From Candidatus Nomurabacteria bacterium (GTDB lineage: Bacteria; Patescibacteriota; Minisyncoccia; Phycocordibacterales; UBA5272): a stretch of 52,381 nucleotides of DNA. Below the pieces are notes generated by a model, which saw only the letters and a program-made list of their open reading frames with translations, did not search any database and was not told the DNA's origin. Positions 22,137 through 52,381 of this stretch are shown piece after piece; the first letter of the stretch is position 1; each line of letters opens with the position of its first letter. The position numbers were made by a program, and so were the translations under genes. The DNA lies in NCBI GenBank assembly GCA_029288775.1, contig JARIGQ010000003.1:1-52381 (forward strand). Direction: 5' to 3'.

Positions 22137-22439
22137 TTAGCAGCGTTGCAAAGGGACTAAGAGTGGCACAATCTGGCCATTTCCCATCACGGTGTACTGA
22201 CCTGAAGGAACCCATTCCATACGGCATGAGATGATTCGGCTTTGGGGTGGTGGGTACACGGGACCAACGACAGCTGATCCGTAATAGAGCGGCTGTGGTT
22301 GGATGTAGACCGGAGGGGGAAACGCTGGTCGGACGAGCACCGGCGGACCGAAGGTCACATATCCGTGCCGATGGTGTTGCGCAGAGACTTGCGATGTACA
22401 TGTCGCCAAAGCAAGCACGAAAAAGAACTGTCGTATCAT
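22137..22439 (-). CDS. cassette A: small secreted proline-rich protein, unknown function
   Basis: 100 aa. It has a signal peptide (MIRQFFFVLALATCTSQVSA) and a PPV/PQP-rich mature part. AGGAG lies 8 nt before the ATG. The sequence is G+C-rich relative to its neighbours. Confidence 0.6.
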   Translation of the reverse strand: MIRQFFFVLALATCTSQVSAQHHRHGYVTFGPPVLVRPAFPPPVYIQPQPLYYGSAVVGPVYPPPQSRIISCRMEWVPSGQYTVMGNGQIVPLLVPLQRC

Positions 22440-22465
22440 TTCGGAGTCTCCTAGTGGTGTACTAT

Positions 22466-22499
22466 CTGTATCCTATACCCGCTCACCGGCTTTGTAAAC
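22466..22499 (-). promoter_or_regulatory. promoter module of cassette A (shared with cassette B)
   Basis: Minus strand reads GTTTACAAAG-N9-GGGTATAGGATACAG. This gives -35 TTTACA (22493-22498), a 17-nt spacer and -10 TAGGAT (22470-22475). The module has 25 fixed identical positions plus one match in the N9 gap (26 of 34) with 25941-25974. Confidence 0.55.
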
Positions 22500-22514
22500 T
22501 TACTATTCACATGC

Positions 22515-22520
22515 TAGATT
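22515..22520 (+). promoter_or_regulatory. -10 hexamer TAGATT (TGc-extended) 6 nt before mnmA ATG; putative leaderless promoter
   Basis: aTGcTAGATTggctttATG. The -35 TTGTAA (22492-22497) overlaps the -35 of the divergent cassette A promoter. Confidence 0.5.
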
Positions 22521-22526
22521 GGCTTT

Positions 22527-23573
22527 ATGAATAAAGGGAAGAAAGTATTTGTTGGCATGTCAGGTGGAGTTGATTCGTCGCTTTCGGCAGCACTTCTTAA
22601 GGAACAAGGTTACGATGTAACTGGAGTATTTATTAAAGTGTGGCAGCCGGATTTTATTGAATGTACCTGGAAAGAAGATAGGCTAGATGCAATGCGAGTC
22701 GCTTCGGAGTTAGATATTCCTTTTGTGACGCTTGATTTGGAAAAGGAATATAAACAAGGAGTGATTGATTACATGATTGAGGAGTATCGCAGTGGTCGCA
22801 CACCAAACCCTGACGTAATGTGCAATCGGGAAGTAAAATTTGGCGCCTTTTGGGAATGGGCAGAAGCTCAAGGCGCAGATTATATTGCTACCGGGCATTA
22901 CGCGGTAACCGACCATAAGCAGCTCTTGATGTCTAAGGATACCAATAAAGATCAGACCTATTTTTTATGGACGCTTACAAGTAAAGACTTAGAACATGTG
23001 CTTTTTCCCATTGGACATATGACCAAAGATGAAGTAAGAAATGAAGCACAAAAGAGGAATCTTTATACAAGTTCGAAGAAGGACAGCCAAGGACTTTGTT
23101 TTGTAGGCACGATAGATTTAAAGACACTCCTTAAAGAATATATTAAACAAGAAAAAGGAGAGGTGGTGGATGAAACAGGGCGTGTTATCGGACAGCATGA
23201 AGGTGCGATATTCTATACCATTGGAGAGCGACACGGATTTACTATTGTTACCACAACAGAAGTCTCTACGCCTTATTATGTAATTGCAAAAGATACTGAA
23301 GCTAATAGGCTTGTGGTGTCTCATACCAAGCCTTTATCTTCCGAAGAAGAAATCGTTCTTGAAAAAGTAAGTTTTGTTCAGGAGGAGCCTGGGGAAGGGG
23401 TAGTATGTCAGGCGCGAGGACGTTATCGAGCTCCACTTGCTACGGTTACGCTTCACAAAGATAATGAGGTATGGAAGGTTACTCGTAAAGAAGGGGAATT
23501 ACTTTTTACTTCAGGACAGTCCGTGGTGTTCTATGACGGATCGCAATGTCTTGGCGGGGGAATTATGAAATAG
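22527..23573 (+). CDS. mnmA: tRNA 2-thiouridine(34) synthase
   Basis: PP-loop VGMSGGVDSS. It also has NPDVMCNREVKF and SQGLCF motifs. Confidence 0.95.
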   Translation: MNKGKKVFVGMSGGVDSSLSAALLKEQGYDVTGVFIKVWQPDFIECTWKEDRLDAMRVASELDIPFVTLDLEKEYKQGVIDYMIEEYRSGRTPNPDVMCNREVKFGAFWEWAEAQGADYIATGHYAVTDHKQLLMSKDTNKDQTYFLWTLTSKDLEHVLFPIGHMTKDEVRNEAQKRNLYTSSKKDSQGLCFVGTIDLKTLLKEYIKQEKGEVVDETGRVIGQHEGAIFYTIGERHGFTIVTTTEVSTPYYVIAKDTEANRLVVSHTKPLSSEEEIVLEKVSFVQEEPGEGVVCQARGRYRAPLATVTLHKDNEVWKVTRKEGELLFTSGQSVVFYDGSQCLGGGIMK

Positions 23574-24315
23574 TTTGTACCAAGTTAAGGACAAAAAACA
23601 TTCCCACTGCTCCAATTACTGTCATGAGTACGGTTGTCCATTTGCTGTGACGGGAATGTGCTTCCGGAAGAATATCCGATGCGCCGATATACAAAAGAAA
23701 ACCTGCAAAGATTCCAAGGTATATAAGTCCAAAGGCGGAAGAGATGGTAAAGAGAAGCGTTGAGAGGGCACCGAGAATGGGTGCAACTGCATCAGCGATT
23801 AAGAACATAAGTGCGCGTACGCGTGAGTTGTTATGCGAGAGCATAAGTGAGACAGTATTGATGCCATCTGAAAAATCATGCGCTAGTACCGCAAAGGCGA
23901 TAGCTACTCCGGTTGCATGAGAAACTTGAAACGCTAAGCCAATGCCGATACCATCTAAGAAAGAGTGGCCAATAAGCGCAAGTGCCGATCCAACACCAAT
24001 CGTAGGGTGACGGTGTTCTCCGTATGCATGTTCATGGGTGTGGTGAATAAGAATATATTTTTCTACTACATGAAAAATAAGAAATCCACCAACAAGCGGA
24101 ACAAAAGCCATGTGGAGATCTACTCCTAAATGGTTGGCTAGTTCAACAATTTCTGGCAAGATATCGAATGAAACTACCGATAAAATTACTCCGGCGGTAA
24201 ACCCAAGGAGCAAATGGATGCGGGATTGTAATTGAAGCGCAATGAGGCCTCCAATGAGTGTGGCAAGGCTGGTGAGAATAATAAATAATGCAAATGAAGA
24301 AAGGTGGAGTTCCAT
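23563..24315 (-). CDS. ZIP family metal (zinc) transporter
   Basis: 250 aa and multi-pass. It is His-rich (HHTHEHAYGEHRHP) with HSFLDGIGIG / LAHDFSDG ZIP signatures. Confidence 0.85.
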   Translation of the reverse strand: MELHLSSFALFIILTSLATLIGGLIALQLQSRIHLLLGFTAGVILSVVSFDILPEIVELANHLGVDLHMAFVPLVGGFLIFHVVEKYILIHHTHEHAYGEHRHPTIGVGSALALIGHSFLDGIGIGLAFQVSHATGVAIAFAVLAHDFSDGINTVSLMLSHNNSRVRALMFLIADAVAPILGALSTLLFTISSAFGLIYLGIFAGFLLYIGASDILPEAHSRHSKWTTVLMTVIGAVGMFFVLNLVQTIS

Positions 24316-24321
24316 GGCCTT

Positions 24322-24327
24322 AGTCTA
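24322..24327 (-). promoter_or_regulatory. -10 hexamer TAGACT 6 nt before the ZIP ATG (24315); putative leaderless promoter
   Basis: Minus strand reads caTAGACTaaggccATG. Confidence 0.45.
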
Positions 24328-24349
24328 TGCAAAATGCGAACTATTTGCA
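24328..24349. promoter_or_regulatory. inverted repeat TGCAAA-N10-TTTGCA; candidate Fur-family operator
   Basis: It abuts the ZIP -10 element and lies between the divergent ZIP and Fur-family genes. Confidence 0.3.
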
Positions 24350-24380
24350 ATACACAGGAGACGTGCTACGATGTGGATAT

Positions 24381-24809
24381 ATGGCGTTGTACTCAAAAGA
24401 TGAACTCATAGACATGATTAAAGAAGGGGGTCTTCGTCTCACCGATCATCGTCTCCTTGTGCTAGAAATAGTTTCCAAGCAGAAGCATCCTATTACTGTC
24501 TACGAGCTTGTAGACCTTCTTCGCAAGAAAGAAAATATTGATCAAGCAACGGTGTATAGAAATCTAGCCTCGCTCCATGAAGCTGGTCTTTTGCGCCGAC
24601 TGGATTTCAATCATGGACATGCACATTACGAGCTCGAAACAGGACGGGCTTCACATTCCATTGTATGTAGTAATTGCGAAACAATTGAAAAGGTCGAAGG
24701 TATTTCCATTGATGATGTAGTTAAAAAAATGCTTAAGAAATCTAAAAAGTTCAAGGAAACGCGAACTCATTCAATGGAACTATACGGCTTGTGTCGCAGT
24801 TGTGCATAG
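24381..24809 (+). CDS. Fur family transcriptional regulator (Zur-like by context)
   Basis: It has GLRLTDHRLLVLEIV, a wHTH and C-terminal CxxC pairs (CSNCETIE, CRSC). The start is either 24327 or 24381. I prefer 24381. Confidence 0.8.
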   Translation: MALYSKDELIDMIKEGGLRLTDHRLLVLEIVSKQKHPITVYELVDLLRKKENIDQATVYRNLASLHEAGLLRRLDFNHGHAHYELETGRASHSIVCSNCETIEKVEGISIDDVVKKMLKKSKKFKETRTHSMELYGLCRSCA

Positions 24810-24810
24810 G

Positions 24811-24816
24811 TATACT
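24811..24816 (+). promoter_or_regulatory. -10 hexamer TATACT 6 nt before bcp ATG; putative leaderless promoter
   Basis: ggTATACTggagttATG. Confidence 0.5.
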
Positions 24817-24822
24817 GGAGTT

Positions 24823-25278
24823 ATGCTAAAAATTGGAACTAAAGCGCCTACTTTTTCACTTCCTGATCAGGAGGGAAAGATGCATTCGCTTGAGGATTAT
24901 CTGGGGAAGAAAGTGCTTCTTTATTTTTATCCCAAAGATGATACACCGGGGTGTACCACTGAAGCCTGCAATTTTCGTGATGGATATAAGGAATTTGAAA
25001 AGATGGGATTAGTAATTGTAGGAGTGAGCAAGGATAGTGTTACAAGTCATAAGAAGTTTGCTGAAAAATTTGATCTGCCATTCCCGCTCCTTTCTGATGA
25101 GATAGGTGAGGTGGTTGAGAAGTATGATTCTTGGGGTAAGAAGAAATTTATGGGCCGCGAATATATGGGAATCATTCGCAATAGTTTTCTTATAGACGAA
25201 GAAGGAAAGATTGCCAAAATCTATGAATCGGTAAAGCCAGCCGAACATGCAGAAGAAGTAAAATCAGACGTTAAGTAA
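24823..25278 (+). CDS. bcp: thioredoxin-dependent thiol peroxidase (peroxiredoxin Bcp)
   Basis: Start moved to ATG 24823. FYPKDDTPGCTTEAC peroxidatic Cys motif. Confidence 0.9.
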   Translation: MLKIGTKAPTFSLPDQEGKMHSLEDYLGKKVLLYFYPKDDTPGCTTEACNFRDGYKEFEKMGLVIVGVSKDSVTSHKKFAEKFDLPFPLLSDEIGEVVEKYDSWGKKKFMGREYMGIIRNSFLIDEEGKIAKIYESVKPAEHAEEVKSDVK

Positions 25279-25289
25279 TCTACAAAAGA

Positions 25290-25323
25290 AAAAAGCCGGC
25301 CATCTTGCGATGTCCGGCTTTTG
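25290..25323. terminator. bidirectional terminator between bcp and cassette B
   Basis: AAAAGCCGG-(14-nt loop)-CCGGCTTTT, with an A-run and a T-run on either side. Confidence 0.7.
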
Positions 25324-25344
25324 CGAGCGGCTATATCCCTGCCG

Positions 25345-25806
25345 CTATTCCTCCACACCCGCGTGTTCTGCGGCCATCTGCCGCGCCAGTAAGAAGGTGC
25401 GCGTATGGTTCCAGTCCCTCCGCGAACGGGGCATCGGTGGTGCCTTCAGTTTCGCTTCGGTTGTGAGGACGGCGGATGATGCGATCCGTCCTCCATTGGG
25501 CAGATAGAATCGGGCCTTGTGGAGCTCGTCTCCGCTGCCCATGATCGCATTCCACGCGTAGTTGCGATCCGGGATTTCCATCGTGCGCACCAGGTTGCCG
25601 TCGTAGCAGAAGCCGACCCATGCGCTGTTCTCGAAGACCTTGCCGATCAACTTGGCGGAGATCCGCACAGGCTGCTCTTCGGTGTTGATCTTCAGGTACA
25701 GGCCGGTTGGCTTTGCTGCCTCCGCTTTCAACCTCTTTTCGAAGGCGAGGGTTTGGTTCTGTTGTGAGCCAGAGACCTCTTCGGTCTCTTTTTCTTTTGC
25801 TGCCAT
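25345..25806 (-). CDS. cassette B: 153-aa protein of unknown function
   Basis: Third codon positions are strongly G/C-rich (CTG, GGC, ATC, AAC, GAC). GAAAGGA precedes the ATG. It has an approximately 130-nt 5' UTR. No family recognised. Confidence 0.65.
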   Translation of the reverse strand: MAAKEKETEEVSGSQQNQTLAFEKRLKAEAAKPTGLYLKINTEEQPVRISAKLIGKVFENSAWVGFCYDGNLVRTMEIPDRNYAWNAIMGSGDELHKARFYLPNGGRIASSAVLTTEAKLKAPPMPRSRRDWNHTRTFLLARQMAAEHAGVEE

Positions 25807-25940
25807 CTTATGTCCTTTCTTGGTGATGGCGGTACTTACAATGCTCGCTAGTTTTATTCTCCGGTAAACCGGGGCCGTCGACTAGCTTGCTCCTCAGCCT
25901 CTTTGGGTGCCCTTGTAGAATGGGTGCCTCAGAGTCCACT

Positions 25941-25974
25941 CTGTATCCTATACCCATGAAAAACCTTTGTAAAC
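25941..25974 (-). promoter_or_regulatory. promoter module of cassette B (shared with cassette A)
   Basis: Minus strand reads GTTTACAAAG-N9-GGGTATAGGATACAG. This gives -35 TTTACA (25968-25973), a 17-nt spacer and -10 TAGGAT (25945-25950). Confidence 0.55.
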
Positions 25975-25980
25975 CCTAAT

Positions 25981-26010
25981 AAAAATAGCGCTGTGTACAG
26001 CGCTATTTTT
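25981..26010. terminator. bidirectional terminator after the DsbA-like gene
   Basis: AAAAATAGCGCTG-tgta-CAGCGCTATTTTT. Confidence 0.8.
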
Positions 26011-26011
26011 A

Positions 26012-26761: not shown

Positions 26762-26804
26762 ATATACTATACTTAATAGTAACGAGTATACCACTTACCT
26801 TCCT

Positions 26805-27401
26805 ATGATCACCATCCCAGCCCCAGTATTACGACGCTTCCTTCTAGGTACTCTTCTTGAGTTTGGTCCGATTATTATCTTTCTTTCCACGTTTGCTCAT
26901 TTCCACATCTATAAAGCAACTACGTTTTTAATGATTGCTACTATTATTTCTACTATTCTTACGTATCGGCTTCAGAAACGTCTTCCGTACCTTGCTTTGT
27001 ACGTTGCTTTGCTTACGATTTTATTTGGCTATCTTACGCTTATGCATCGTGAGCCGAGGTTTATTCAGATGCGAGATACGCTCTATGACCTTACATGTGC
27101 TTTCACGCTTATATGCGGTTTACTTTTCAATGTGCCTTTTCTTAAAATTGCCTTTGAGCAAGTCATTCCTATGTCGACGAAAGCATGGGTCAAACTTACG
27201 TATGCGTGGATCGGATATCTCCTTATAAGCGCCTCTCTTAATGAATATGTGCGACGTACTGAGTCGCTTAGAACCTGGTTTGAGTTTAAAGGATTCATGG
27301 TAATTGCGACTACGCTCTTTGGTTTTGCAGCACTTTTCTTTTTCTATGAGCGAACCTCATCTAAAGGCAACCACTCAGTAGAAAAAAAGGGAGAAATGTG
27401 A
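26805..27401 (+). CDS. inner-membrane protein, septation protein IspZ/YciB-like
   Basis: 198 aa with about 5 TM helices. The N-terminal LLEFGPIIIFL resembles the YciB family. Confidence 0.5.
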   Translation: MITIPAPVLRRFLLGTLLEFGPIIIFLSTFAHFHIYKATTFLMIATIISTILTYRLQKRLPYLALYVALLTILFGYLTLMHREPRFIQMRDTLYDLTCAFTLICGLLFNVPFLKIAFEQVIPMSTKAWVKLTYAWIGYLLISASLNEYVRRTESLRTWFEFKGFMVIATTLFGFAALFFFYERTSSKGNHSVEKKGEM

Positions 27402-27417
27402 TAAAATTGCCTCTGTT

Positions 27418-28239: not shown

Positions 28240-28265
28240 AAAAGACCTCTCACGAGGTCTTTTTC
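28239..28265. terminator. bidirectional terminator after atpB; overlaps the stop codon of cassette C
   Basis: AAAGACCTC-tcacg-GAGGTCTTT, flanked by an A-run and a T-run. Confidence 0.75.
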
Positions 28266-28576
28266 TGTTGAAGTGCGCGCAGTTCACGAAGTGCGCACTC
28301 TTGCAACTCGATTAAGTTGCAGATCCATGTTGGAACCGCACCATTTCGATTGAAGTCAACGCTTACGCGTTTGGCTTCCTTGGGCCGTGTGCGAACGATG
28401 GTTGCTTTCGAGTCAGTATCGGCTGCTCTCAGGTACATCCGCGGTTGTGCGGAAAGCAGGATATACGTAACACCGGGTCTTGCCCGTTGTTCACGCCTCC
28501 CATTTTCTTCTTTTTGTGCTTCTTGGGGTGCAATGCGGTATACCACACGCATAACCGGTTTTCTCTGAGTTATCAC
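28250..28576 (-). CDS. cassette C: 108-aa protein of unknown function, antisense between atpB and atpE
   Basis: GTG start with AGGAG (28584-28588) 7 nt upstream. An alternative start is ATG at codon 9. It is G+C-rich and ends in TGA inside the atpB terminator. Confidence 0.55.
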   Translation of the reverse strand: MITQRKPVMRVVYRIAPQEAQKEENGRREQRARPGVTYILLSAQPRMYLRAADTDSKATIVRTRPKEAKRVSVDFNRNGAVPTWICNLIELQECALRELRALQQKKTS

Positions 28577-28604
28577 GAACGGTCTCCTGGGAACAATTTC
28601 TTAA

Positions 28605-28633
28605 ACTGTAGCTTTTTATATGATGTTAGTCAA
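28605..28633 (-). promoter_or_regulatory. promoter of cassette C
   Basis: Minus strand reads TTGACT (28628-28633), 17-nt spacer, TACAGT (28605-28610). Confidence 0.5.
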
Positions 28634-33998: not shown

Positions 33999-34143
33999 TA
34001 AGGGAAGGAGGTTCAATCTCCAGAAAGGGTGTGCCGATGAGCAAGTCCACCTAGCGTTTGCGCCACGTCTTCCAATATTCCTCGGACCATGCATCCGATG
34101 ATTCCACAGAAAACTCGCTGGTCGCCACACGCCCTAACCAGCC

Positions 34144-34169
34144 CCTGAAGCGAAAGCTTCAGGTTTTTT
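34144..34169 (+). terminator. rho-independent terminator about 145 nt after atpC
   Basis: CCTGAAGC-gaaa-GCTTCAGG followed by TTTTTT. Confidence 0.8.
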
Positions 34170-34181
34170 CTTTTGTAACTC

Positions 34182-34210
34182 TTGCTTAAATGAAGAAGGA
34201 TTTTTATAAT
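34182..34210 (+). promoter_or_regulatory. strong sigma70-like promoter with no downstream CDS
   Basis: TTGCTT (34182-34187), 17-nt spacer, TATAAT (34205-34210). Confidence 0.5.
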
Positions 34211-34216
34211 GAAATG

Positions 34217-34332
34217 GGAATGTTCCCATAACTCTGGAAAGGTGTGTGCGCGACGAACGGGTTTTTGTGATGGTAAGATGTTCGCCGATAAGGGCATCAT
34301 GGCAGCAACCGCGGACGAAAGTCCGCGGTTTT
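34217..34332 (+). ncRNA. candidate small RNA (about 115 nt), unclassified
   Basis: It is bounded by the promoter at 34182-34210 and the hairpin AACCGCGGAC-gaaa-GTCCGCGGTT plus TT (34307-34332). The next gene, uppP, is convergent. Confidence 0.3.
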
Positions 34333-35156: not shown

Positions 35157-35618
35157 ATGAATTGGATAATTATCTTTTGTGCGAAGGATTTGATTTACGT
35201 GGCATCGTTGTACGCTTTTTATCATGTGCTAAAGCGTCATGAAAGAAAACATCATGTACGACATGTTCTCACTCTTTTCTTTTCTGCAGGAGCTTCTTAT
35301 ATTTTTGCTGGGTATTTGAAAAACTTATTTCATTTACCTAGACCGGATTTATCCAAAGCTTTATTTCAATTACAAGATACTTCAAGCTATGGGCTTCCCT
35401 CAGGACATGCAGCATATATGTTTGCGCTTGCAGCTGCTATGTATTCGTTTGATAAGAAAGCTGGATATGTGTTGTATGTGGTAGCTATTATTGTTGGTAC
35501 TGCTCGTGTGCTTGCTGGTGTTCATTTTTGGTATGACATTGTGGGTGGTGCAGTGCTTGGGTATGCGATTGGCTGGGTGGTATCGTCTGTTGCCAAGCGA
35601 CTCATTCGACATGCTTAG
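35157..35618 (+). CDS. PAP2 superfamily phosphatase (membrane)
   Basis: Start moved to ATG 35157. PAP2 motifs KNLFHLPRP, PSGHA and ARVLAGVHFWYDIVGG. Confidence 0.85.
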   Translation: MNWIIIFCAKDLIYVASLYAFYHVLKRHERKHHVRHVLTLFFSAGASYIFAGYLKNLFHLPRPDLSKALFQLQDTSSYGLPSGHAAYMFALAAAMYSFDKKAGYVLYVVAIIVGTARVLAGVHFWYDIVGGAVLGYAIGWVVSSVAKRLIRHA

Positions 35619-35668
35619 GCAGGTGTGATAGATTTTGTGGTGATATAGTTCACCACAAGGAGCAATCC

Positions 35669-35881
35669 ATGAGTGTTTCTAGGATGTTTATCCCGCGGGT
35701 GTGGGATAGGAGCATGATCACCATGATGTCGGCCATGTACATGGCTCTCAGCAGCGCGTTCTCGTCCATGACTCCTGTCTTAGACGAAGGAAGCTTTCCC
35801 AAGAAAAAGCGTGGCCGCGCGGCACCGCTTAAGGGTGATCGACGCAAGAAGCCGGCTCGGCTGCGGAAAGGGAAGCAATGA
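35669..35881 (+). CDS. cassette D, ORF1: 70-aa Met-rich protein with a basic C-terminal tail, unknown function
   Basis: AAGGAG (35657-35662) lies 6 nt before the ATG. It is G+C-rich. Its TGA overlaps the ATG of ORF2 (ATGA). Confidence 0.45.
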   Translation: MSVSRMFIPRVWDRSMITMMSAMYMALSSAFSSMTPVLDEGSFPKKKRGRAAPLKGDRRKKPARLRKGKQ

Positions 35882-36087
35882 AAGCCAATTCCATACAGAA
35901 TGGGCGCATGATGGTTCCGCCCCGCAACAGCCAGAAGTACTCGAAGACGCAACGTCTTGAGAAAAGGCAGCAGCGTTTTCTGGAAAAGAAACGCAAGCAA
36001 CAAGCTGAACAACTGGAAGATGAGCTTTCTCCAAAGCCCGCAAAAAAGCGATCCGGCTCCTTCTTCCGCACGGTTCGTCACTCGTAA
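35878..36087 (+). CDS. cassette D, ORF2: 69-aa highly basic Lys/Arg/Gln-rich protein, unknown function
   Basis: It is translationally coupled to ORF1 and is followed by the terminator at 36102-36130. Confidence 0.45.
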   Translation: MKANSIQNGRMMVPPRNSQKYSKTQRLEKRQQRFLEKKRKQQAEQLEDELSPKPAKKRSGSFFRTVRHS

Positions 36088-36101
36088 GGAAGAGACGATG
36101 A

Positions 36102-36130
36102 AGCGCGCCACAAGCGCGCTCTTCTTTTTT
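36102..36130 (+). terminator. rho-independent terminator of cassette D
   Basis: AGCGCGC-cacaa-GCGCGCT followed by cttctttttt. Confidence 0.75.
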
Positions 36131-40476: not shown

Positions 40477-40716
40477 ATGAGCATTCCTATAACGATAGAA
40501 ACCCTCCGCGCTCTTCAGGAACAAGACGAGACCGCTTACGCTAATCAGCGTGGTTTTGATCACGATTACTGTCCCGGGTTTTCGGACGGAAATCCGGCTG
40601 GACTTCCGTGTGACTGCCCCAAAGCCCGGGAATTCCTTCTCGGAACAGGCGAAGCCACCCTCGTTTGTTATACGGGAGTATGCCCTGTACGGGCAGTGCT
40701 TGCCTATTACGACTAG
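40477..40716 (+). CDS. cassette E: 79-aa Cys-containing protein of unknown function
   Basis: AAGGAGG (40463-40469) lies 7 nt before the ATG. It has 5 Cys (YCPGF, PCDCP, VCYTGVCP). It is G+C-rich. Its own terminator is at 40735-40760. Confidence 0.55.
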   Translation: MSIPITIETLRALQEQDETAYANQRGFDHDYCPGFSDGNPAGLPCDCPKAREFLLGTGEATLVCYTGVCPVRAVLAYYD

Positions 40717-40734
40717 CAGCTTTTCTCCCTATAG

Positions 40735-40760
40735 GTCCCTGCAAAGGGGCTTTTCTTTTT
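40735..40760 (+). terminator. rho-independent terminator of cassette E
   Basis: GTCCCT-GCAA-AGGGGC followed by ttttcttttt. Confidence 0.7.
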
Positions 40761-40773
40761 CTACGGTTTATGG

Positions 40774-44972: not shown

Positions 44973-45041
44973 TATTGGAAAAATAAGGAGATTTTTGATA
45001 GGGTAAAGGCTGAGGTTCACTATTTGCACCAGGAGTACATC

Positions 45042-45344
45042 ATGACAGAGCAACCAACTCTGGAACATGACCTGGTGCGAAAAACACTCAGGTCCTTAAC
45101 GATGGAGCGGCGCACTTTGGAGGAAATTCAGCATAATTACACCCAGCTTTTCCCTCCCTTGTTTCTTTTTCGAAACACTCAATCCGTATCACTTGCTAAT
45201 CTCAAACGGGCTTTAACTTTCCTAGTGCGAGAAGGGTACGTTTCGGAAGAAGTGACAAGGTATCTTGAGCGACCGCTCAAGCGCGACACGAAAGTGTATT
45301 GTCTTTCCGGCAAAGGAATGTCATATCTTTCTAAGAAAAAGTAG
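45042..45344 (+). CDS. small winged-helix-like protein of unknown function
   Basis: 100 aa. AGGAG lies 6 nt before ATG 45042. LKRALTFLVREGYVSEE...KVYCLSGKG resembles a wHTH recognition helix plus wing. Terminator AGCACCGCC-ctagtc-GGCGGTGCT follows. Confidence 0.45.
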   Translation: MTEQPTLEHDLVRKTLRSLTMERRTLEEIQHNYTQLFPPLFLFRNTQSVSLANLKRALTFLVREGYVSEEVTRYLERPLKRDTKVYCLSGKGMSYLSKKK

Positions 45345-45377: not shown

Positions 45378-46268
45378 ATGCCTACAATCATGGAACCTTC
45401 CTCAATAGATCAAGAAATAGCCGAACTTGAAGCGCAGATGAATAGCGTAGATTTTTGGGTTGACAAGGAAAAGGCACAAGAGACGATAAAGAAGATAAAG
45501 GAATTAAAGGATAAGCGGGATGGTGTATCTTCTTTGGATAAAGGAAACGCGATTTTGACTATATTGGCGGGTGCCGGAGGAGATGATAGTGAAGATTTTG
45601 CCCGCATGCTCTATGAAATGTATGACGCGTATGTAAAGCGCCAAGGATATAGCTATTCTTTTTTACATGAAAATAAAAATGATCATGGCGGTTTTCGCAA
45701 TGTAACAATAGAAATTGAAGGGAAGAATGCATACGGTAATTTGAAGAATGAGTCCGGTGTGCATCGACTTGTGCGTATTTCGCCATTTAATGCACAGGCC
45801 AAGCGACACACGTCTTTTGCTCTGGTGGAAGTGTTGCCAATTATCCCCCACGTTGAGCAGAAGCCGATCCCGCCGGACGAGATTCGTATTGAAACATCAA
45901 AATCTTCTGGCCCGGGCGGACAAAATGTGAATAAGCGTGAGACTGCTGTGCGTATCGTGCATATCCCTACCAATATTGCGGTGCACGTAGCAACGGAGCG
46001 TGAGCAAGAAAGAAACAAGCAAAAAGCGCTAGAGATTTTGGCGGCAAAACTTTTTAAACTCGAAGAAGAAAAAAGAAAAGCAGAAATTGAAGGAAGGCAG
46101 ATTTCGAAGACCACTGAGATTGAGTGGGGAAATCAGATTCGCTCTTATGTGCTTCATCCTTACAAGATGGTGAAGGATCATCGTACGGATGTAGAAACCA
46201 GTAATGTAGAAGCGGTTCTTGAGAAAGGGGAGATTGATGAGTTTATAGAAGCAGAAAAGAAGCTCTAA
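45378..46268 (+). CDS. prfB: peptide chain release factor 2 (short N-terminal domain, no frameshift site)
   Basis: The SPF tripeptide (ISPFNAQ) and GGQ (SGPGGQNVNK) are present. 291-296 aa. The start is 45378 or 45393. Confidence 0.85.
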   Translation: MPTIMEPSSIDQEIAELEAQMNSVDFWVDKEKAQETIKKIKELKDKRDGVSSLDKGNAILTILAGAGGDDSEDFARMLYEMYDAYVKRQGYSYSFLHENKNDHGGFRNVTIEIEGKNAYGNLKNESGVHRLVRISPFNAQAKRHTSFALVEVLPIIPHVEQKPIPPDEIRIETSKSSGPGGQNVNKRETAVRIVHIPTNIAVHVATEREQERNKQKALEILAAKLFKLEEEKRKAEIEGRQISKTTEIEWGNQIRSYVLHPYKMVKDHRTDVETSNVEAVLEKGEIDEFIEAEKKL

Positions 46269-46398: not shown

Positions 46399-47100
46399 AT
46401 GGACGATAGAAAAGTGAAACCTGCGCAAGCCATCAACCTCATGGGTCGCCTGGGTGGTGCTGTTCGCTGGGGAGACTTCGAAGTGAAGGACGTTCAGAAA
46501 ATCATCGAAACTCCTCGCTTATCAGGAAGGCATTTCGAGGAGTTCATGCGGCAAGGGGGCAGGATGTCCCTCGAAAATATTCCCATTTGTATTCTCGAGG
46601 AGCGAACGGTTGGACTCCGCTCAGGAGACTGGAGTGATCAGGTTCATTACGTGGAGCAGGTCATCGAAACAGATCTTCTGTTTTCACGCTCGTCCCATCA
46701 CGTCCTCGTTCGGGGAAGTGTGCTTCTTGCACCGGAAGATTGGAGACAAAGACGGGAAGCGAAAGTGGTGGTACTGGAGATCATTCCCGAATACGCAGGA
46801 GACATAGACGGCCACTCGGTCGTGCGGCGCTACAGGATGCTTGAGCTTATGGAGCTCCTGGATCTCTACCCTTCTACTTTTCCGGAAGCTGTGGCATTTT
46901 TCGAGCAAGTTCCAACTACCCATAAGCCTGTAGTCATCCTGAACGCGTGGAAAAACATTTATAAGGAGGTGGGTGATGTAGTGTTCACTTCAAAGCAAAC
47001 CGCCGGACGTCCCGTCTACGAGTTCGGTCCGATTGACGGCCGCGTCAACGACCCCGAAGCCTGCGGCGGTCACCACTACTATCTTGCCACCCGGTATTGA
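46399..47100 (+). CDS. cassette F: 233-aa protein of unknown function
   Basis: AAGGA lies 6 nt before the ATG. It has a G+C-rich, G/C-ending codon bias and a TGA stop. Its own terminator is at 47121-47143. Confidence 0.65.
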   Translation: MDDRKVKPAQAINLMGRLGGAVRWGDFEVKDVQKIIETPRLSGRHFEEFMRQGGRMSLENIPICILEERTVGLRSGDWSDQVHYVEQVIETDLLFSRSSHHVLVRGSVLLAPEDWRQRREAKVVVLEIIPEYAGDIDGHSVVRRYRMLELMELLDLYPSTFPEAVAFFEQVPTTHKPVVILNAWKNIYKEVGDVVFTSKQTAGRPVYEFGPIDGRVNDPEACGGHHYYLATRY

Positions 47101-47120
47101 CGAGCTGAGAAAATAATCGA

Positions 47121-47143
47121 AGCCGCCTTCGGGCGGTTTTTTC
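47121..47143 (+). terminator. rho-independent terminator of cassette F
   Basis: AGCCGCC-ttcg-GGCGGTT followed by a T-run. Confidence 0.8.
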
Positions 47144-47195
47144 TTTGTATACAAAGTATTATTCACACATTGTCACAAATCGTTTTTTGATGTGT

Positions 47196-47201
47196 TAAGA
47201 T
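47196..47201 (+). promoter_or_regulatory. -10 hexamer TAAGAT 6 nt before ftsE ATG; putative leaderless promoter
   Basis: gtTAAGATaagagtATG. Confidence 0.45.
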
Positions 47202-47207
47202 AAGAGT

Positions 47208-47888
47208 ATGCTTTACTTCGACAAAGTTTCGAAGGAATACGAGAACGGAACGAAAGTCATTGATGACATTTCGCTTACCATCCATCCAGGAGAACTCGTA
47301 TCCATTGTAGGTCACTCAGGCGCTGGGAAAACCACGCTTATCAAATTGCTTCTTGCAGAAGAGCACCCAACATCGGGCAAGGTGCATTTTCACTCGGAAG
47401 ATATCCATAAGCTCCGTGGCAAGGACATGACCAATTATCGCCGCAAGGTAGGCGTCGTGTTCCAGGACTTTCGACTTATTCCAAACAAGACGGCGTATGA
47501 AAATGTGGCTTTTGCCATGGAAGCGGCAGGTAAGCATGACGACGATATTCGGGAGGATGTTCCGCACGTGCTTGATCTTGTGGACTTGAAAGACAAGATG
47601 CACCACTTCCCACACCAGCTCTCTGGTGGTGAACAGCAGCGTGTCGCAATTGCTCGCGCTATCATCAATCGTCCGGAAATCATCATTGCAGACGAACCAA
47701 CAGGAAACTTAGATCCGCTCAACACTTACGATATCGTGCAGATTTTGAAGAAGATCAATGATTTAGGTACTACGGTTATTCTTACTACTCATAACAAAGG
47801 CATTGTGGACAATCTCGGTCGCCGCGTAATTACCATGGAAGATGGTCGTGTCACCCGTGATCAGAAATCCGGTAAGTTCACCATGTAA
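47208..47888 (+). CDS. ftsE: cell division ATP-binding protein FtsE
   Basis: Walker [10 protein letters not shown], signature LSGGEQQR, Walker [12 protein letters not shown]. It is followed by ftsX. Confidence 0.9.
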
Positions 47889-47898
47889 TTTTATTTTT

Positions 47899-48825: not shown

Positions 48826-48851
48826 ACCACAAGCATAGAGTGCTGGTACTA

Positions 48852-48865
48852 AGAACAATTGTTCT
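48852..48865. promoter_or_regulatory. perfect 14-bp palindrome AGAACAATTGTTCT (GAAC-N4-GTTC) upstream of the helicase gene
   Basis: It has the same 14-mer core as 43789-43802. It lies 31 nt upstream of the TATACT at 48897-48902. Confidence 0.45.
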
Positions 48866-48912
48866 ACTATCAACATAGAAGCTTTCTTTTCTGCGGTATA
48901 CTAAAAGCCTCT

Positions 48913-50565
48913 ATGACGCAGAAAACTGCTCTTTCAATTTTGAAACTTGGCCACACGGTCTTTTTGACTGGAGCTGCAGGTTCGGGAAAGTCGTATACGC
49001 TTCGTGAATACATTACCTACCTCAAAAAGCACGGCATACGCTATGCGGTAACTGCATCTACCGGTATTGCCTCCACTCATGTTGGTGGGACGACTATTCA
49101 CGCCTGGAGCGGTATTGGTATTAAGCAGCGCCTTACAGACTATGAATTGGATGCTATTGAAGAAAAGGCGAATGTGTACAAACGTTGGAATGAAACCCAG
49201 GTGCTTATTATTGATGAGATTTCCATGCTCCACGCTTCGTTTGTAGATATGTTGGACAAGGTAGCCAAGCATATGCGGAGAAATGATAAGCCTTTCGGCG
49301 GTCTTCAGGTTGTATTTACGGGGGACTTCTTTCAATTGCCTCCGGTTGTGCGAAATGATAGCACCTATGAAAGTCAGGAGGTGTACGCATTTGCTTCGCG
49401 GGCATGGAAAGAAGCCAAGCCTGTGATCTGTTATTTGACCGAACAGCATCGCCAGGATGATGACTCACTTTCCACTATTTTAAATGCCATTCGCGCAGGG
49501 GAGGTGGAAGAAGAGCATTATGAAATGCTTCGTGAAGCAACGCAGGCGCATACCGATGATCACATCAAGCTTTATACACATAATGAAAACGTCGACCTTA
49601 TCAATAGGAAAGCGTTTAATGAACTTCCGGGAGATGTGCGTACCTATGAGATGGTAGCAAGTGGCAAAGGTGCACTTCTTGAAGCTCTTAAGAACAATTG
49701 TTTGGCAGATGAAACCCTTGAACTCAAAAAAGGCGCCAAGGTTATCTTCATCAAGAATGATATCGAACGCAGATTTGTTAATGGTTCCATGGGGGAAGTG
49801 GTGGATTTTGAAACAGACGATACGCCAGTAGTGGAACTTGCTAGTGGGAGACGTGTTTCGGTAAAGGCAGATTCGTGGCGCATTGAGGAGGATGGCAAAG
49901 TAAAAGCCGAAATCTCGCAATTGCCACTTAAGCTTGCCTGGGCAATTACCGTACACAAGAGCCAGGGAATGACCCTTGAAAGGGCAGAAATTGACTTGAG
50001 CCGGGCCTTTGCTTCCGGTCAGGGATATGTGGCACTTTCACGCTTGAAGAGTCTCCAGGGGCTTCATCTGGTCGGGTTTAATCCTCAAGCTCTCCAGGTT
50101 TCGGAAATTGTTCGGGAAGCGGATTATTCATTTCGTACAAAGAGTGAACAAGCCGAACAAGCTCTGGATAAATACGATACAGAGGAGTTGCAAAAGCTCC
50201 ATGAAAAGTTCCTGACCCAATCCGGAGGATCGATAGAGGAATTATCCGAAGAAGAAGCTGAAGAGCTTCAGGAAAAAACAAAATCGCATGTCGTCACCCA
50301 AGAAATGCTAGCAACCGGCATGGCACTTAAGGATATTGCTGAAGTTCGCGGACTTTCTATTGATACCATTATTGGTCACATTGAAAAGCTGGCTGAACTC
50401 AAAGAAAAAGTAGAGCTTGCACATGTGCTTCCAAAGAAGAAAGAAGTAACAGAAATCAAAAAAGCTTTTGAGGTGTTGGAAACTACGAAACTTACTCCTG
50501 TGTTTGATCACCTTAAGGGTAAGTATACGTTTCATCAGATTCGTCTTGTGCGAGTGCTTGTATAA
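48913..50565 (+). CDS. Pif1/RecD-like AAA ATPase DNA helicase with C-terminal HTH-like domain
   Basis: Start moved to ATG 48913. Walker A GAAGSGKS, Walker B LIIDEISML, plus FTGDFFQLPPV and AITVHKSQG. Confidence 0.8.
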   Translation: MTQKTALSILKLGHTVFLTGAAGSGKSYTLREYITYLKKHGIRYAVTASTGIASTHVGGTTIHAWSGIGIKQRLTDYELDAIEEKANVYKRWNETQVLIIDEISMLHASFVDMLDKVAKHMRRNDKPFGGLQVVFTGDFFQLPPVVRNDSTYESQEVYAFASRAWKEAKPVICYLTEQHRQDDDSLSTILNAIRAGEVEEEHYEMLREATQAHTDDHIKLYTHNENVDLINRKAFNELPGDVRTYEMVASGKGALLEALKNNCLADETLELKKGAKVIFIKNDIERRFVNGSMGEVVDFETDDTPVVELASGRRVSVKADSWRIEEDGKVKAEISQLPLKLAWAITVHKSQGMTLERAEIDLSRAFASGQGYVALSRLKSLQGLHLVGFNPQALQVSEIVREADYSFRTKSEQAEQALDKYDTEELQKLHEKFLTQSGGSIEELSEEEAEELQEKTKSHVVTQEMLATGMALKDIAEVRGLSIDTIIGHIEKLAELKEKVELAHVLPKKKEVTEIKKAFEVLETTKLTPVFDHLKGKYTFHQIRLVRVLV

Positions 50566-50573
50566 AAAGAAAG

Positions 50574-50595
50574 GCGGCGAGCGTGGGCTCGCCGC
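50574..50595 (-). terminator. hairpin terminator of cassette G (may also serve the helicase gene)
   Basis: GCGGCGAGC-gtgg-GCTCGCCGC. On the minus strand it is followed by ctttctttt. Confidence 0.65.
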
Positions 50596-50602
50596 AGTGG
50601 CT

Positions 50603-50764
50603 TCACGCCATCTGGTAGAAAGGCAGTTGTTCCTGGCGCGTGTCTGCCGGTGCCGACCGCGGCGGAACTTCCTCTTCTTGCGCGCAGGTCTGCAAGGGCG
50701 TGGTTCCGTTGAAAAGGTCAGGATGGTCCGGGTTGTCCGGATCGATGTCGTAATCGTTGCTCAT
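50603..50764 (-). CDS. cassette G: 53-aa acidic protein of unknown function (below the ORF-track length cutoff)
   Basis: Minus strand reads AAAGGAG-tatatcg-ATG and encodes MSNDYDIDPDNPDHPDLFNGTTPLQTCAQEEEVPPRSAPADTRQEQLPFYQMA. TGA stop. G+C-rich. Confidence 0.4.
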   Translation of the reverse strand: MSNDYDIDPDNPDHPDLFNGTTPLQTCAQEEEVPPRSAPADTRQEQLPFYQMA

Positions 50765-50850
50765 CGATATACTCCTTTTGGGATGGACCCACTTTTAAGC
50801 ATACACCTCTTCCAATGCGAGGGTGTTTATAACTTGTATATGTCTTTATC

Positions 50851-50948
50851 TGGATGCAGGCACCGGATTCGAACCGGCTTTTCTTTCGCAATATCCTAAG
50901 ACACGAAGCATCTTACGAAAGAAAATGTTACCAGGTAAACTGCCCGCA
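50851..50948 (-). ncRNA. non-canonical tRNA-like RNA gene (98 nt, CCA encoded)
   Basis: Acceptor is 7 bp, TGCGGGC/GCCTGCA (one G-T pair). T-arm GCCGG-TTCGAAT-CCGGT is canonical. The 3' end is T-CCA. The D-arm is vestigial (TTAC-ctg-GTAA). The anticodon-arm position is occupied by a 10-bp helix (TTTTCTTTCG/CGAAAGAAAA) enclosing a hairpin TAAGA-(9 nt)-TCTTA. Confidence 0.4.
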
Positions 50949-51062
50949 TTGCGAGTGCGATTTGGATAGCACTCGAAGTAAATAGACGCAGCTACTTACA
51001 AAATCTTACACTTTGGCAATTGTTGAAAGATTGGTCTAAAAATGGTACTATGATGGCCACAT

Positions 51063-51133
51063 TGGGGTATCGTCTAATGGTAGGACAACGGATTCTGGCT
51101 CCGTTAATCGTGGTTCGAGTCCATGTACCCCAG
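51063..51133 (+). tRNA. tRNA-Gln (anticodon CTG), CCA not encoded
   Basis: TGGGGTA-TC-GTCT-AATGGTA-GGAC-A-ACGGA-TTCTGGC-TCCGT-TAAT-CGTGG-TTCGAGT-CCATG-TACCCCA-G. The upstream promoter is TTGAAA-17-TACTAT. Confidence 0.9.
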
Positions 51134-51137
51134 CTGA

Positions 51138-51143
51138 TATACT
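51138..51143 (+). promoter_or_regulatory. -10 hexamer TATACT (TGa-extended) 7 nt before ATG 51151; putative leaderless promoter
   Basis: cTGaTATACTtgtcatcATG. Confidence 0.5.
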
Positions 51144-51150
51144 TGTCATC

Positions 51151-51840
51151 ATGACAACACAACTACGAGAAGATAATCCATTTGAAGATTCAAAGATGGC
51201 ACAGGAGTGGATTGATGCTATTGAGACTGAAAGAGGAGGAGCTCGAGAAAAGGAAGTGTACCCAATGATTAATAGTTGGGTAAAAGAAAATCACCTTCAA
51301 ACAGTTTTGGAAGTAGGAGCTGGGCAAGGTGTCTGTTCTCCATATGTTGAAACTGAATATATTGGTGTCGAACCATCTCAAGCTCTTATCGATAGGGCAT
51401 TTGAGTTGTATCCTCAAAAGAAATTTATTAAAGGGTCTTCTTACGAGCTTCCACTAGAAAAGGGAAGTGTGGACGGAGCTTTTTCAGTCGGTGTTTGGTT
51501 TCATATTGAAAACCTAGACGACGCACATAAGGAGCTCTCCCGAGTTTTAAAACCAGAGGGTAAGGTTTTTATTATCACTTCCAACCCAGAAACTCACGAT
51601 GAATGGGAGTCTCTTTTTACAGGAACTAAAGAAGGGAAGAAGTTGGACGGAGCGGTAAAGCTGCCTACAGGTAAAATGACTCGTAATGTATTCTTTTTGC
51701 ACACAAAAGAAGATATCATCAGTTCACTTGAGAAAGCTGGTTTTGAAATAATAAGCACTAAAAACTTTGGTTATGGCAGTGAGAATGTGGAAGACAGAGG
51801 TTTGGGATTCTGGATTGCTATTGAAGCACGGAAGAGGTAA
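51151..51840 (+). CDS. class I SAM-dependent methyltransferase
   Basis: Motif I VLEVGAGQGV. Also LKPEGKVFIITSN. Confidence 0.85.
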   Translation: MTTQLREDNPFEDSKMAQEWIDAIETERGGAREKEVYPMINSWVKENHLQTVLEVGAGQGVCSPYVETEYIGVEPSQALIDRAFELYPQKKFIKGSSYELPLEKGSVDGAFSVGVWFHIENLDDAHKELSRVLKPEGKVFIITSNPETHDEWESLFTGTKEGKKLDGAVKLPTGKMTRNVFFLHTKEDIISSLEKAGFEIISTKNFGYGSENVEDRGLGFWIAIEARKR

Positions 51841-51880
51841 GAAAAGTTCGAACTTCTTCCATGAGCAGCTCGAGAATTTA

Positions 51881-51916
51881 AAAACAAAGACCGCCGAAGC
51901 GATCTTGCTTGGCGGT
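51881..51916 (-). terminator. hairpin terminator for the minus-strand ORF 51924-52124
   Basis: ACCGCC-(15 nt)-GGCGGT. On the minus strand it is followed by ctttgttttt. Confidence 0.55.
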
Positions 51917-51923
51917 GTGGTGT

Positions 51924-52124
51924 TCAGCGTTGACGGTCCTGCTCCGGCCTGGGTGTGTGGATGAGAATCATGCCGCCTCGTGCAGGACCCAGTACCTGCC
52001 TGACCACCTCTCCCAATTGGACCATGAGTTGGCTTTTTTGGGTTTCGGTGATCTGCTTGTCGAGTGCCAGATCGATATTGAACGCGTATGTCTCTTCCAA
52101 AGCGATCTCCTTCAAAAGCTCCAA
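51924..52124 (-). CDS. cassette H, ORF1: 66-aa protein of unknown function (start uncertain, TTG)
   Basis: It is G+C-rich with a TGA stop. A consensus promoter ends 7 nt before the TTG. There is no SD. Internal ATG alternatives exist. Confidence 0.35.
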   Translation of the reverse strand: MELLKEIALEETYAFNIDLALDKQITETQKSQLMVQLGEVVRQVLGPARGGMILIHTPRPEQDRQR

Positions 52125-52131
52125 GGTATTT

Positions 52132-52160
52132 ATTGTATCACATTAAGTTAATTATGTCAA
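52132..52160 (-). promoter_or_regulatory. near-consensus sigma70 promoter facing ORF 51924-52124
   Basis: Minus strand reads TTGACA (52155-52160), 17-nt spacer, TACAAT (52132-52137). Confidence 0.55.
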
Positions 52161-52255
52161 TATTAAAGTTCTAACTTCGCCCCAGAGCCCCAGCTCGAAG
52201 GTTTGTGATAGTTTTATGATAAAATTCGGAATGAACTTCCCGAGGAGAATTGTTC

Positions 52256-52381
52256 ATGCAGGAAGCATCCGTTGAAACTTGCCAAACCTTCACCTTTGCG
52301 GGAACAAGGGAGCAAAGGAATGCTCTGGATGAGGTCTACCCCAAGATCTCTAAGGAGTACAACATCAAGTTTTCCGAGGAA
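52256..52381 (+). CDS. cassette H, ORF2: 5' part of an ORF of unknown function, runs off the window
   Basis: GAGGAG (52242-52247) lies 8 nt before ATG 52256. It encodes MQEASVETCQTFTFAGTREQRNALDEVYPKISKEYNIKFSEE. The upstream -10 is TGaTAAAAT. Confidence 0.4.
   Translation, partial: MQEASVETCQTFTFAGTREQRNALDEVYPKISKEYNIKFSEE

Follow-up and report, generated by a model that had tools for sequence, protein, structure and literature searches.

In lambdoid phages, extra single-gene transcription units known as 'morons' have been described between conserved genes. Under the amelioration model, the G+C content at third codon positions (GC3) of an imported gene drifts to the host value over time. 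Atypical genes are frequently lower in G+C content (GC) than typical ones, and in genomes of the GeneMarkS-2 group C the operon-internal genes are expected to use ribosome-binding sites (RBS) (PMC6028130). Here, a contig of a Candidatus Nomurabacteria bacterium (JARIGQ010000003.1) was analysed. The window, i.e. the whole stretch under study, is the entire 52,381-bp NCBI contig, with a GC of 0.445, and its subject is a group of small GC-rich units, cassettes A to H, lying in the spacers between housekeeping genes. An earlier note, made from the sequence alone, had read them as repeated acquisitions of single genes from higher-GC donors. The cassettes probably belong instead to a second gene class that is lineage-wide and native to this Parcubacteria/Paceibacterota clade. 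The reading is carried by the architecture of the units, their positional orthology, the persistence of their signature and its generality in relatives.

The cassette set comprised 10 open reading frames (ORFs), nine of them complete, and was compared with a native set of 49 window genes. The cassettes, with their Shine–Dalgarno (SD) motifs, protein lengths in amino acids (aa) and the GC and GC3 of their ORFs, are as follows.

Cassette A, 22095..22498, minus strand: promoter TTTACA-N17-TAGGAT (22470-22498), SD AGGAGA, ORF 22137-22439 (100 aa) and terminator hairpin 22095-22120, with positional orthologues; GC 0.545, GC3 0.545.
Cassette B, 25285..25973, minus strand: promoter TTTACA-N17-TAGGAT (25945-25973), leader of ~135 nt, weak SD, ORF 25345-25806 (153 aa), terminator ~25285-25319; GC 0.582, GC3 0.734.
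Cassette C, 28250..28633, minus strand, antisense between atpB and atpE: promoter-like site 28605-28633, SD AGGAG, ORF 28250-28576 (108 aa; the annotation has 100 aa, starting at an internal ATG); GC 0.508, GC3 0.468.
Cassette D, 35606..36130, plus strand: promoter 35606-35634, SD AAGGAG, ORFs D1 (35669-35881, 70 aa; GC 0.554, GC3 0.676) and D2 (35878-36087, 69 aa; GC 0.505, GC3 0.586) with an ATGA stop/start overlap, terminator 36102-36130.
Cassette E, 40477..40762, plus strand: SD AAGGAGG, ORF 40477-40716 (79 aa, Cys-rich), terminator 40733-40762; GC 0.533, GC3 0.487.
Cassette F, 46399..47150, plus strand, between prfB and ftsE: weak SD AAGGA, ORF 46399-47100 (233 aa), terminator 47119-47150; GC 0.528, GC3 0.568.
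Cassette G, 50574..50764, minus strand: SD AAAGGAG, ORF 50603-50764 (53 aa, acidic), terminator 50574-50595; GC 0.593, GC3 0.704.
Cassette H1, 51887..52160, minus strand: promoter TTGACA-N17-TGnTACAAT (52132-52160), 66-codon ORF 51924-52124, terminator 51887-51906; GC 0.537, GC3 0.657.
Cassette H2, 52256..52381, plus strand: SD GAGGAG, ORF running past the contig end.

The native genes had a GC of 0.438±0.023 (range 0.394-0.492) and a GC3 of 0.402±0.047 (maximum 0.515), compared with a GC of 0.48-0.59 and a GC3 of up to 0.73 for the cassette ORFs, which corresponds to GC z-scores of 2.9-6.8 relative to the natives. Intergenic DNA outside the cassettes had a GC of 0.41. In a 150-nt sliding window, six of the seven top GC peaks (at least 0.59) fell on cassettes and the seventh (0.593) on D. 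The higher GC asserted by the earlier note was thus borne out. For GC3, significance was judged against length-matched in-frame pieces cut from native genes. The values of A, B, D1, D2, F, G, H1 and H2 were exceeded in no more than 1.4% of the native samples, whereas those of C and E were exceeded in 11 and 10%, respectively, so that a raised GC3 held for 8 of the 10 ORFs and was not significant for the remaining two.

An SD-like motif, scored 3-11 nt ahead of the start, preceded 8/10 cassette ORFs and only 5/49 native genes, again as the earlier note had stated. The motif was of the AGGAG type for A, C, D1, E, G and H2 and of a weak AGGA type for B and F; at D2 and H1 none was found at this distance, and the SD of C is valid only with a GTG start. 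Stop codons also differed. TGA terminated five of the nine complete cassette ORFs, and the native genes used TAA (32), TAG (15) and TGA (2), the last two being exactly leuS and 26805-27401, as had been noted. Together with a single TGA among 66 core genes from five related loci (L081, L082, L084, L085 and L087), this gave 3/115 core genes with a TGA stop, although RF2 is encoded.

The underlying codon shift was mainly from T-ending to C-ending codons. The fraction C/(C+T) at two-fold pyrimidine codons and Ile was 0.31±0.09 in the natives and 0.48-0.84 in the cassettes. Simple symmetric GC pressure was considered as a source of this pattern, in which the T-to-C component was strongest and the shift in Gln, Lys and Glu codons was weak, but since replication-strand effects confound it, half of the cassettes lying on the minus strand, no conclusion was drawn and the shift was left uninterpreted. 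GC, GC3 and TGA use follow one compositional variable; the 'four independent ways' in which the cassettes were said to differ from their neighbours are therefore not independent.

Taken at face value, the GC, GC3, SD and TGA use resemble a generic higher-GC bacterial style. This is the first of several points in favour of a rival reading, in which each cassette is a recent and independent transfer from a higher-GC donor (the host, a phage or another bacterium) that entered a gap by illegitimate recombination. Codons for Gln, Lys and Glu barely moved towards G, unlike in typical high-GC genomes, although this point is strand-confounded. As set out below, the comparison with relatives makes such a history unlikely for the set as a whole.

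Intrinsic terminators were located downstream of A, B, D2, E, F, G and H1, and −35/−10 promoter-like pairs upstream of A, B, C, D and H1, in agreement with the description of the cassettes as self-contained transcription units in housekeeping spacers. Many native genes carried a TATACT-type −10 box 6-8 nt ahead of the ATG, consistent with leaderless transcripts. All same-strand downstream core genes that were inspected (mnmA, atpE, smc, rpsP and ftsE) had a −10-like hexamer 6-9 nt before the ATG, and the operon-internal core genes examined, atpA and atpG included, were without an RBS. Each unit of the proposed class would comprise a stand-alone −35/−10 promoter, a short 5' untranslated region with an AGGAG SD, a small ORF and an intrinsic terminator, set into a spacer between core genes. 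As the downstream core genes appear from their sequence to use leaderless-type promoters of their own, a cassette would leave operon expression uninterrupted. The cassettes would then be expressed and translated through the SD, and the core genes would be leaderless or SD-less at initiation.

To place the cassettes in context, two sets of relatives' loci were compared: L001-L080, which are regions syntenic around RNase R, and L081-L089, collected around close homologues of Bcp and of F (the F-homologue contigs P0003, P0005 and P0008 being L081, L086 and L087, respectively). The nearest genomes were uncultured Patescibacteria labelled Paceibacterota, Nomurabacteria or 'Saccharibacteria', with RNase R identities of 76-80%. 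A common gene order was observed in the window, L004, L081-L085, L088 and L089, in two blocks. The first block runs leuS, sigma-like gene, 506-aa gene, mltG, RNase T, slot A, mnmA, ZIP, fur, bcp, slot B, dsbA-like, ispA, atpB, slot C, atpE. The second runs PAP2, slot D, smc, rnr, slot E, rpsP, KH, trmD and, further along, prfB, slot F, ftsE, ftsX, recD, slot G, tRNA-Gln. The DNA identity of the flanking core genes was 70-90% and dropped to background exactly at the slot edges. Within the slots, A, B, E and F had positional orthologues of matching slot and strand, with protein identities of 21-53% where the flanking core proteins were 80-95% identical. The SD was kept in the orthologues of all four, and the raised GC3 in those of A and F and mostly in those of E. 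Most of the genes occupying slots B, C and D in the relatives were GC-rich too, and many were SD-led and TGA-terminated.

Slot A, between RNase T and mnmA, contained a minus-strand ORF in four relatives: L082, where it is annotated (84 aa), and L083, L084 (at ~4750-5070) and L089, where it was found by six-frame translation. The window protein begins with a Sec signal peptide, its mature N-terminus is rich in His, and it contains a PPPVY motif as well as a Cys pair. All four orthologues had a PPxVY-type Pro-rich motif and a Cys pair, and those of L082, L083 and L084 also had the Sec signal peptide and His-rich mature N-terminus; that of L089 was read as a partial frame. Protein identity was only 21-27% for the three aligned orthologues, while Bcp was ~81-87% identical. 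In the aligned sequences (window, L082, L083 and L084), the −35 element TTTACA, the TAGGAT-like −10 box and the SD AAGGAGA were invariant. Wherever measured, the GC3 of the A homologues was 0.55-0.82 in backgrounds of about 0.40-0.47. The gene is uncalled in the public annotation of the window and, of the four related assemblies that were read, in L083, L084 and L089; in L083 the slot (~7400-7640) is swallowed by an over-extended RNase T ORF. In L085, slot A was empty and, as read by eye, not visibly GC-rich.

Cassette E lies immediately 5' of the leaderless rpsP (start 40787), and the window, L004, L081, L082 and L001 all have a Cys-rich ORF of 78-97 aa directly ahead of rpsP. Nine residues were invariant across the five genomes (C32, P33, C45, C47, P48, C64, C69, V71 and R72). 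The AGGAG(G) SD was present in the window, L004, L081 and L082, that is, in all those for which the upstream sequence was read.

HMMER, run exhaustively over 1.84 billion cluster representatives, found only six relatives of cassette F. In all three whose context was readable (L081, L086 and L087), F occupied the same Patescibacteria slot, with ftsE as the next gene downstream; the upstream neighbour was prfB in L081 and L087 and another protein on the short L086 contig. The identity of F to the window protein was 52, 34 and 29% in L081, L086 and L087, compared with 96, 89 and 92% for ftsE; RF2 was 87 and 80% identical. The order of divergence thus largely follows that of the neighbouring genes, which F exceeds in evolutionary rate by several-fold to roughly tenfold. 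In four genomes with differing backgrounds, the GC3 of the F homologues was 0.08-0.19 above the mean of the two flanking genes. The AlphaFold 2 (AF2) model of F, with a predicted local distance difference test score (pLDDT) of 71, yielded no Foldseek hit in either PDB or BFVD.

These data bear directly on the question of recent transfer. At 21-53% aa identity, synonymous sites are saturated, so the raised GC3 is not the un-ameliorated relic of a recent event. Furthermore, as the F homologues keep their GC3 offset and the A homologues remain GC3-rich, the signature is maintained rather than passively inherited. The persistence of the SD in the orthologues of A, B, E and F, and of raised GC3 in those of A and F, thus stands against recent import. 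No donor was found either. Word-indexed searches of 5.8 billion proteins with F and B retrieved nothing beyond the proteins of the window itself, and neither had a hit outside the clade there or among the 1.84 billion cluster representatives (of the cassettes, the searches of large databases covered B, C and F). B had no match in Joint Genome Institute (JGI) metagenomes, B and F had none among GenBank phages (tblastn), and F, B and C had none in IMG/VR. The high-GC donor proposed in the earlier note accordingly found no counterpart for these proteins. All cassette proteins gave only sub-threshold noise against Pfam, NCBIfam, PHROGs and PADLOC, in keeping with the earlier statement that none could be recognised, and PDB sequence searches with F, E and B gave no match.

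Mobility features were also sought. As the earlier note had reported, no integrase, transposase, terminal inverted repeat or target duplication accompanied the cassettes, and no att site was found, which again speaks against recent insertion. Recombinase families were absent from the cassette proteins and from those flanking genes that were scanned. No integron hallmark was seen, there being no imperfect palindromes shared between cassettes and no integrase in the window. A search for shared motifs in the cassette flanks, as the earlier note had proposed, found terminator hairpins only, and no repeats were common to the cassettes.

Other observations favour the transfer reading. Cassettes C, D and G were missing from the matching slots of several relatives, and slots B, C and D carried unrelated proteins in different genomes. 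Slot C was empty in L083, L084 and the P0030 contig, and was occupied by an unrelated 146-aa membrane protein on the plus strand in L085 and by an 80-aa gene on the minus strand in L088. Slot D was empty in L004 and L084, whereas small plus-strand genes were present in L082 (61 aa; no obvious similarity to D by eye) and on the P0016 contig (62 aa). Cassette G was absent from L004, where recD and tRNA-Gln are 88 nt apart. Two GC-rich regions between smc and rnr point the same way. In L001 (9169-9996, minus strand), a 275-aa ORF that is phosphoribosyltransferase-like by eye (VIIIDDVITDG) lies in a segment with a GC of about 0.61 in a 0.43 GC genome, resembling a larger GC-rich insertion. In L082 (16315-17595, minus strand), there are three GC-rich small ORFs. 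A YVDD motif like that of reverse transcriptases, seen by eye only, marks one of them (86 aa) as a possible retroelement remnant; the RNase R gene of this assembly is broken into several ORFs. The comparison of the gaps with those of related genomes, which had been proposed as a check, therefore fell out both ways: C, D and G were absent there, as acquisition would have it, but A, B, E and F were present as positional orthologues. Repeated recent acquisition is contradicted for these four. An external origin of C, D, G and H is possible, although no positive evidence for it was obtained; the relatives' loci that were compared do not extend over H1.

Under the preferred reading of a native gene class, the slots would be re-used throughout the clade. 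A, B, E and F would be vertically inherited while outpacing their neighbours in evolutionary rate by several-fold to about tenfold, and the occupants of slots B, C, D and G would at times be lost or swapped for unrelated small genes. Occupants unlike C, D and G may be orthologues that diverged past recognition or replacements from an unsampled pool. The raised GC, the C-ending codons, the TGA stops and the dependence on an SD would be properties of the class rather than a fading foreign mark.

Slot B illustrates such turnover. L082 and L085 share its conserved promoter with the window, and L082 also the first leader nucleotides; a conserved secondary structure was looked for in the leader and none was found. 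The occupants fell into at least two to three mutually unalignable families, one in the window and L088, one in L085 and L089, and a third in L082. The promoters of A and B are near-identical, of the form TTTACAAAG-N9-GGGTATAGGAT, with two hits in the window against 0.06 expected by chance, and the same type was found at slots A and B of L082, L084 and L085. This common promoter type suggests that A and B may be co-regulated. A single-sequence AF2 model of B was unusable (pLDDT 44).

The signature was not confined to the cassettes of the window. In five relatives (L081, L082, L084, L085 and L087), genes were split by whether or not they had a family hit, which is a crude proxy for gene class; by this measure, an SD was present in 52% of the 29 no-family genes and 1.5% of the 66 family-hit core genes, a TGA stop in 45 and 1.5% (Fisher P 9e-9 and 2e-7, respectively), and the GC3 difference was +0.127 and about 0 (Mann-Whitney P 2e-9). 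In 43 further Parcubacteria loci, for which ORF calling was crude, SD-led ORFs were rare overall but had a GC3 higher by 0.076, with a positive difference in 31 of the 43 (Wilcoxon P 3e-4). Their rarity fits a report that the anti-SD motif was detected in only 48% of Parcubacteria (PMC9297842). The AGGAG conserved ahead of A, E and F nevertheless suggests its use in this lineage.

Several points weigh against a native, lineage-wide class. Besides the crudeness of the family split, the limited detection of the anti-SD motif in Parcubacteria is one, and no 16S rRNA 3' end, from which the anti-SD could be read, lay within the relatives' loci. No detectable orthologue of C, D or G was found among the relatives examined. 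The orthology of B is weak: the protein in slot B of L088 (122 aa, minus strand, with an SD and a TGA stop) was 31% identical to it over just 62 aligned residues, with an E value of 1e-5 for a single comparison, and the diversity of families in slot B could equally mean repeated replacement from outside. The E orthologue of L004 was not GC-rich, although its SD was intact, so that the compositional offset is not universal. Finally, the coding status of D1/D2, G and H1 is not supported by ORF length or homologues.

This last point leads to a second rival reading, that D1/D2, G, H1 and possibly C are chance ORFs in GC-richer spacers, or non-coding RNAs running from promoter to terminator. ORF length exceeded chance expectation for F (P<0.001) and for A, B and C (P 0.02-0.04), weakly so for E (P 0.08), but it was within the chance range for D1/D2, G and H1 (P 0.4-0.7), which moreover are unannotated and without homologues. 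The public annotation calls only B, C (from the internal ATG), E and F among the cassettes, and leaves out D1, D2, G, H1 and A. On the other side, a canonical AGGAG with proper spacing was present at D1, G and H2, the ORFs D2, G and H1 showed a coding-like GC1/GC2/GC3 periodicity, and the ATGA overlap of D1 and D2 is as seen in coupled genes. Rfam returned only four tRNAs in the window at the gathering score, and a permissive search placed nothing inside any cassette. The folding z-scores were unremarkable apart from those of B (−2.9) and D (−2.0). For these few units, a non-coding or chance origin is possible, though rather doubtful. H1 lacks an SD, and its TTG start lies 7 nt after the −10 box of a near-consensus promoter (11/12 matches), so it may be leaderless or non-coding; judged by this layout, H1 may be a small RNA or leaderless transcript rather than an ordinary protein gene. 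The overlapping bicistronic layout of D1/D2 recalls type II toxin-antitoxin pairs, but no toxin or antitoxin family was matched and the coding status is unproven.

Slot G also contains a tRNA-like element, which counts towards a non-coding content of this slot.

tRNA-like element, 50851..50949, minus strand: 87 nt upstream of G, on the same strand.

Its acceptor stem measures 7-9 bp, the T arm (GCCGG-TTCGAAT-CCGGT) is canonical, and a long central hairpin and a 3' CCA are present. ARAGORN did not report it unless the intron option was set, and then called it as tRNA-Arg with an intron of 26 nt. The Rfam tRNA-Sec model scored 23.5 bits, below the threshold of 47; the anticodon loop is CUUUCGU. 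No copy was found in the relatives' loci or in JGI metagenomes. It is the sole hint of a mobility hallmark in the window.

As the contig is metagenome-assembled, the GC-rich pieces could in principle be chimeric inserts from other community members. Eight short inserts, each with native sequence on both sides, would be an implausible pattern for chimeras. Orthologous or analogous inserts were moreover found in the matching slots of independent NCBI, JGI and Logan assemblies, across which the promoter and SD of A were conserved. An assembly artefact is thus extremely improbable.

If the cassettes are a native class, the manner in which their composition is kept has several candidate explanations: selection on leadered mRNAs or on C-ending codons, GC-biased conversion at recombination-prone slots, or ongoing exchange with an unsampled, GC-richer gene pool. 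A stronger version, advanced here only as a speculation with the odds against it, is that selection maintains two expression 'dialects', one of core genes that are leaderless or SD-less, favour T-ending codons and hardly ever use a TGA stop, the other of small, fast-diversifying accessory genes in fixed slots between operons that are SD-led, rich in C-ending codons and often end in TGA. If true, the translation of the accessory proteins (secreted, membrane and Cys-rich, possibly serving host contact) could be switched independently of housekeeping, and composition would be a functional label and not a sign of foreign origin.

The findings have consequences for the calling of horizontal gene transfer and for annotation. 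Composition, codon use, stop codons and RBS all mark these genes as 'foreign', yet synteny marks at least half of them as old residents; composition-based tests would systematically mis-call such a class in Patescibacteria. Gene calling missed the conserved secreted protein A as well as D1, D2, G and H1. The conserved AGGAG suggests that initiation through an SD still operates in a group for which its absence had been assumed. The small secreted, membrane and Cys-rich proteins that evolve fast or are exchanged in these fixed slots are candidates for a role in host interaction or in the envelope, and so for genes of the episymbiotic lifestyle.

Apart from the cassettes, the window encodes ClpB, MsrA/B, LeuRS, MltG, MnmA, ZIP, Fur, Bcp, the F-type ATPase operon, UppP, SMC, RNase R, S16, TrmD, RarA, RF2, FtsEX and a RecD-like helicase. 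Two further small ORFs were noted.

Small gene upstream of prfB, 45042..45344, plus strand: 100-aa ORF, present in the public annotation.
ORF between atpC and uppP, 34013-34300, minus strand: 95 codons, TGA stop, terminator hairpins on both sides.

The first has orthologues of 34-38% identity in L081 (with an AAGGAG SD and a TGA stop), L004 and L009, and no Pfam family. The possibility that ORF 45024-45344 was the N-terminal part of a frameshifted prfB was rejected in favour of this separate conserved gene. The RF2 product itself (296 aa, 45378-46268) aligns to the prfB model from no earlier than position 113, its N-terminal domain appearing short or divergent. The second ORF had no family match and is absent from the public annotation; it may be another unit of the cassette class.

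Several other genes deserve mention. LeuRS (14927-17929, plus strand; 1000 aa) showed weak RNA-pyrophosphohydrolase matches at residues ~426-494, and the orthologues of the relatives have a Pfam NUDIX domain inserted within the synthetase. The following gene (17926-19005, plus strand) encodes a 359-aa protein with a sigma-70 region-4 segment and an RNA polymerase delta/HARE-HTH-like segment, and adjoins leuS in all relatives examined. The longest ORF of a SOUL haem-binding gene (5716-6576, plus strand) overlaps tRNA-Tyr (5718-5802) at its 5' end, so the true start must be further downstream. An antisense ORF at 5965-6693, counted at first among the natives, is probably spurious.

Among described systems, phage morons resemble the cassettes in several respects. 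Both are single small genes with their own promoter and terminator, set between genes that are adjacent in relatives, with a composition unlike their surroundings and without a recombinase or repeats. The cassettes, however, lie in a bacterial chromosome, are flanked by housekeeping genes and gave no PHROG hits of note; at least four of them are old and vertically inherited, they are GC-richer than their context, and no phage homologues were found. Integron cassettes are likewise small, promoter-dependent and variable ORFs at a fixed position, and slot B, with its conserved promoter and variable ORFs, resembles them in this. Here, by contrast, there is no integrase, array or attI/attC-like repeat, and each slot holds one unit with its own terminator. 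The cassettes also resemble ORFans and the atypical genes of GeneMarkS-2 (PMC6028130) in being short, fast-evolving, compositionally odd, confined to a narrow clade, without a family and often uncalled. Such genes are usually read as recent transfers, whereas the cassettes are GC-richer, use another initiation signal than the core genes and retain their signature in most orthologues. Finally, the window agrees with the GeneMarkS-2 group C (e.g. Actinobacteria; PMC6028130) in that a −10 box stands ~7 nt ahead of the ATG in many first genes and a canonical SD is found in a minority of genes, but differs from it in that the SD is here nearly confined to a small, GC-rich accessory class.

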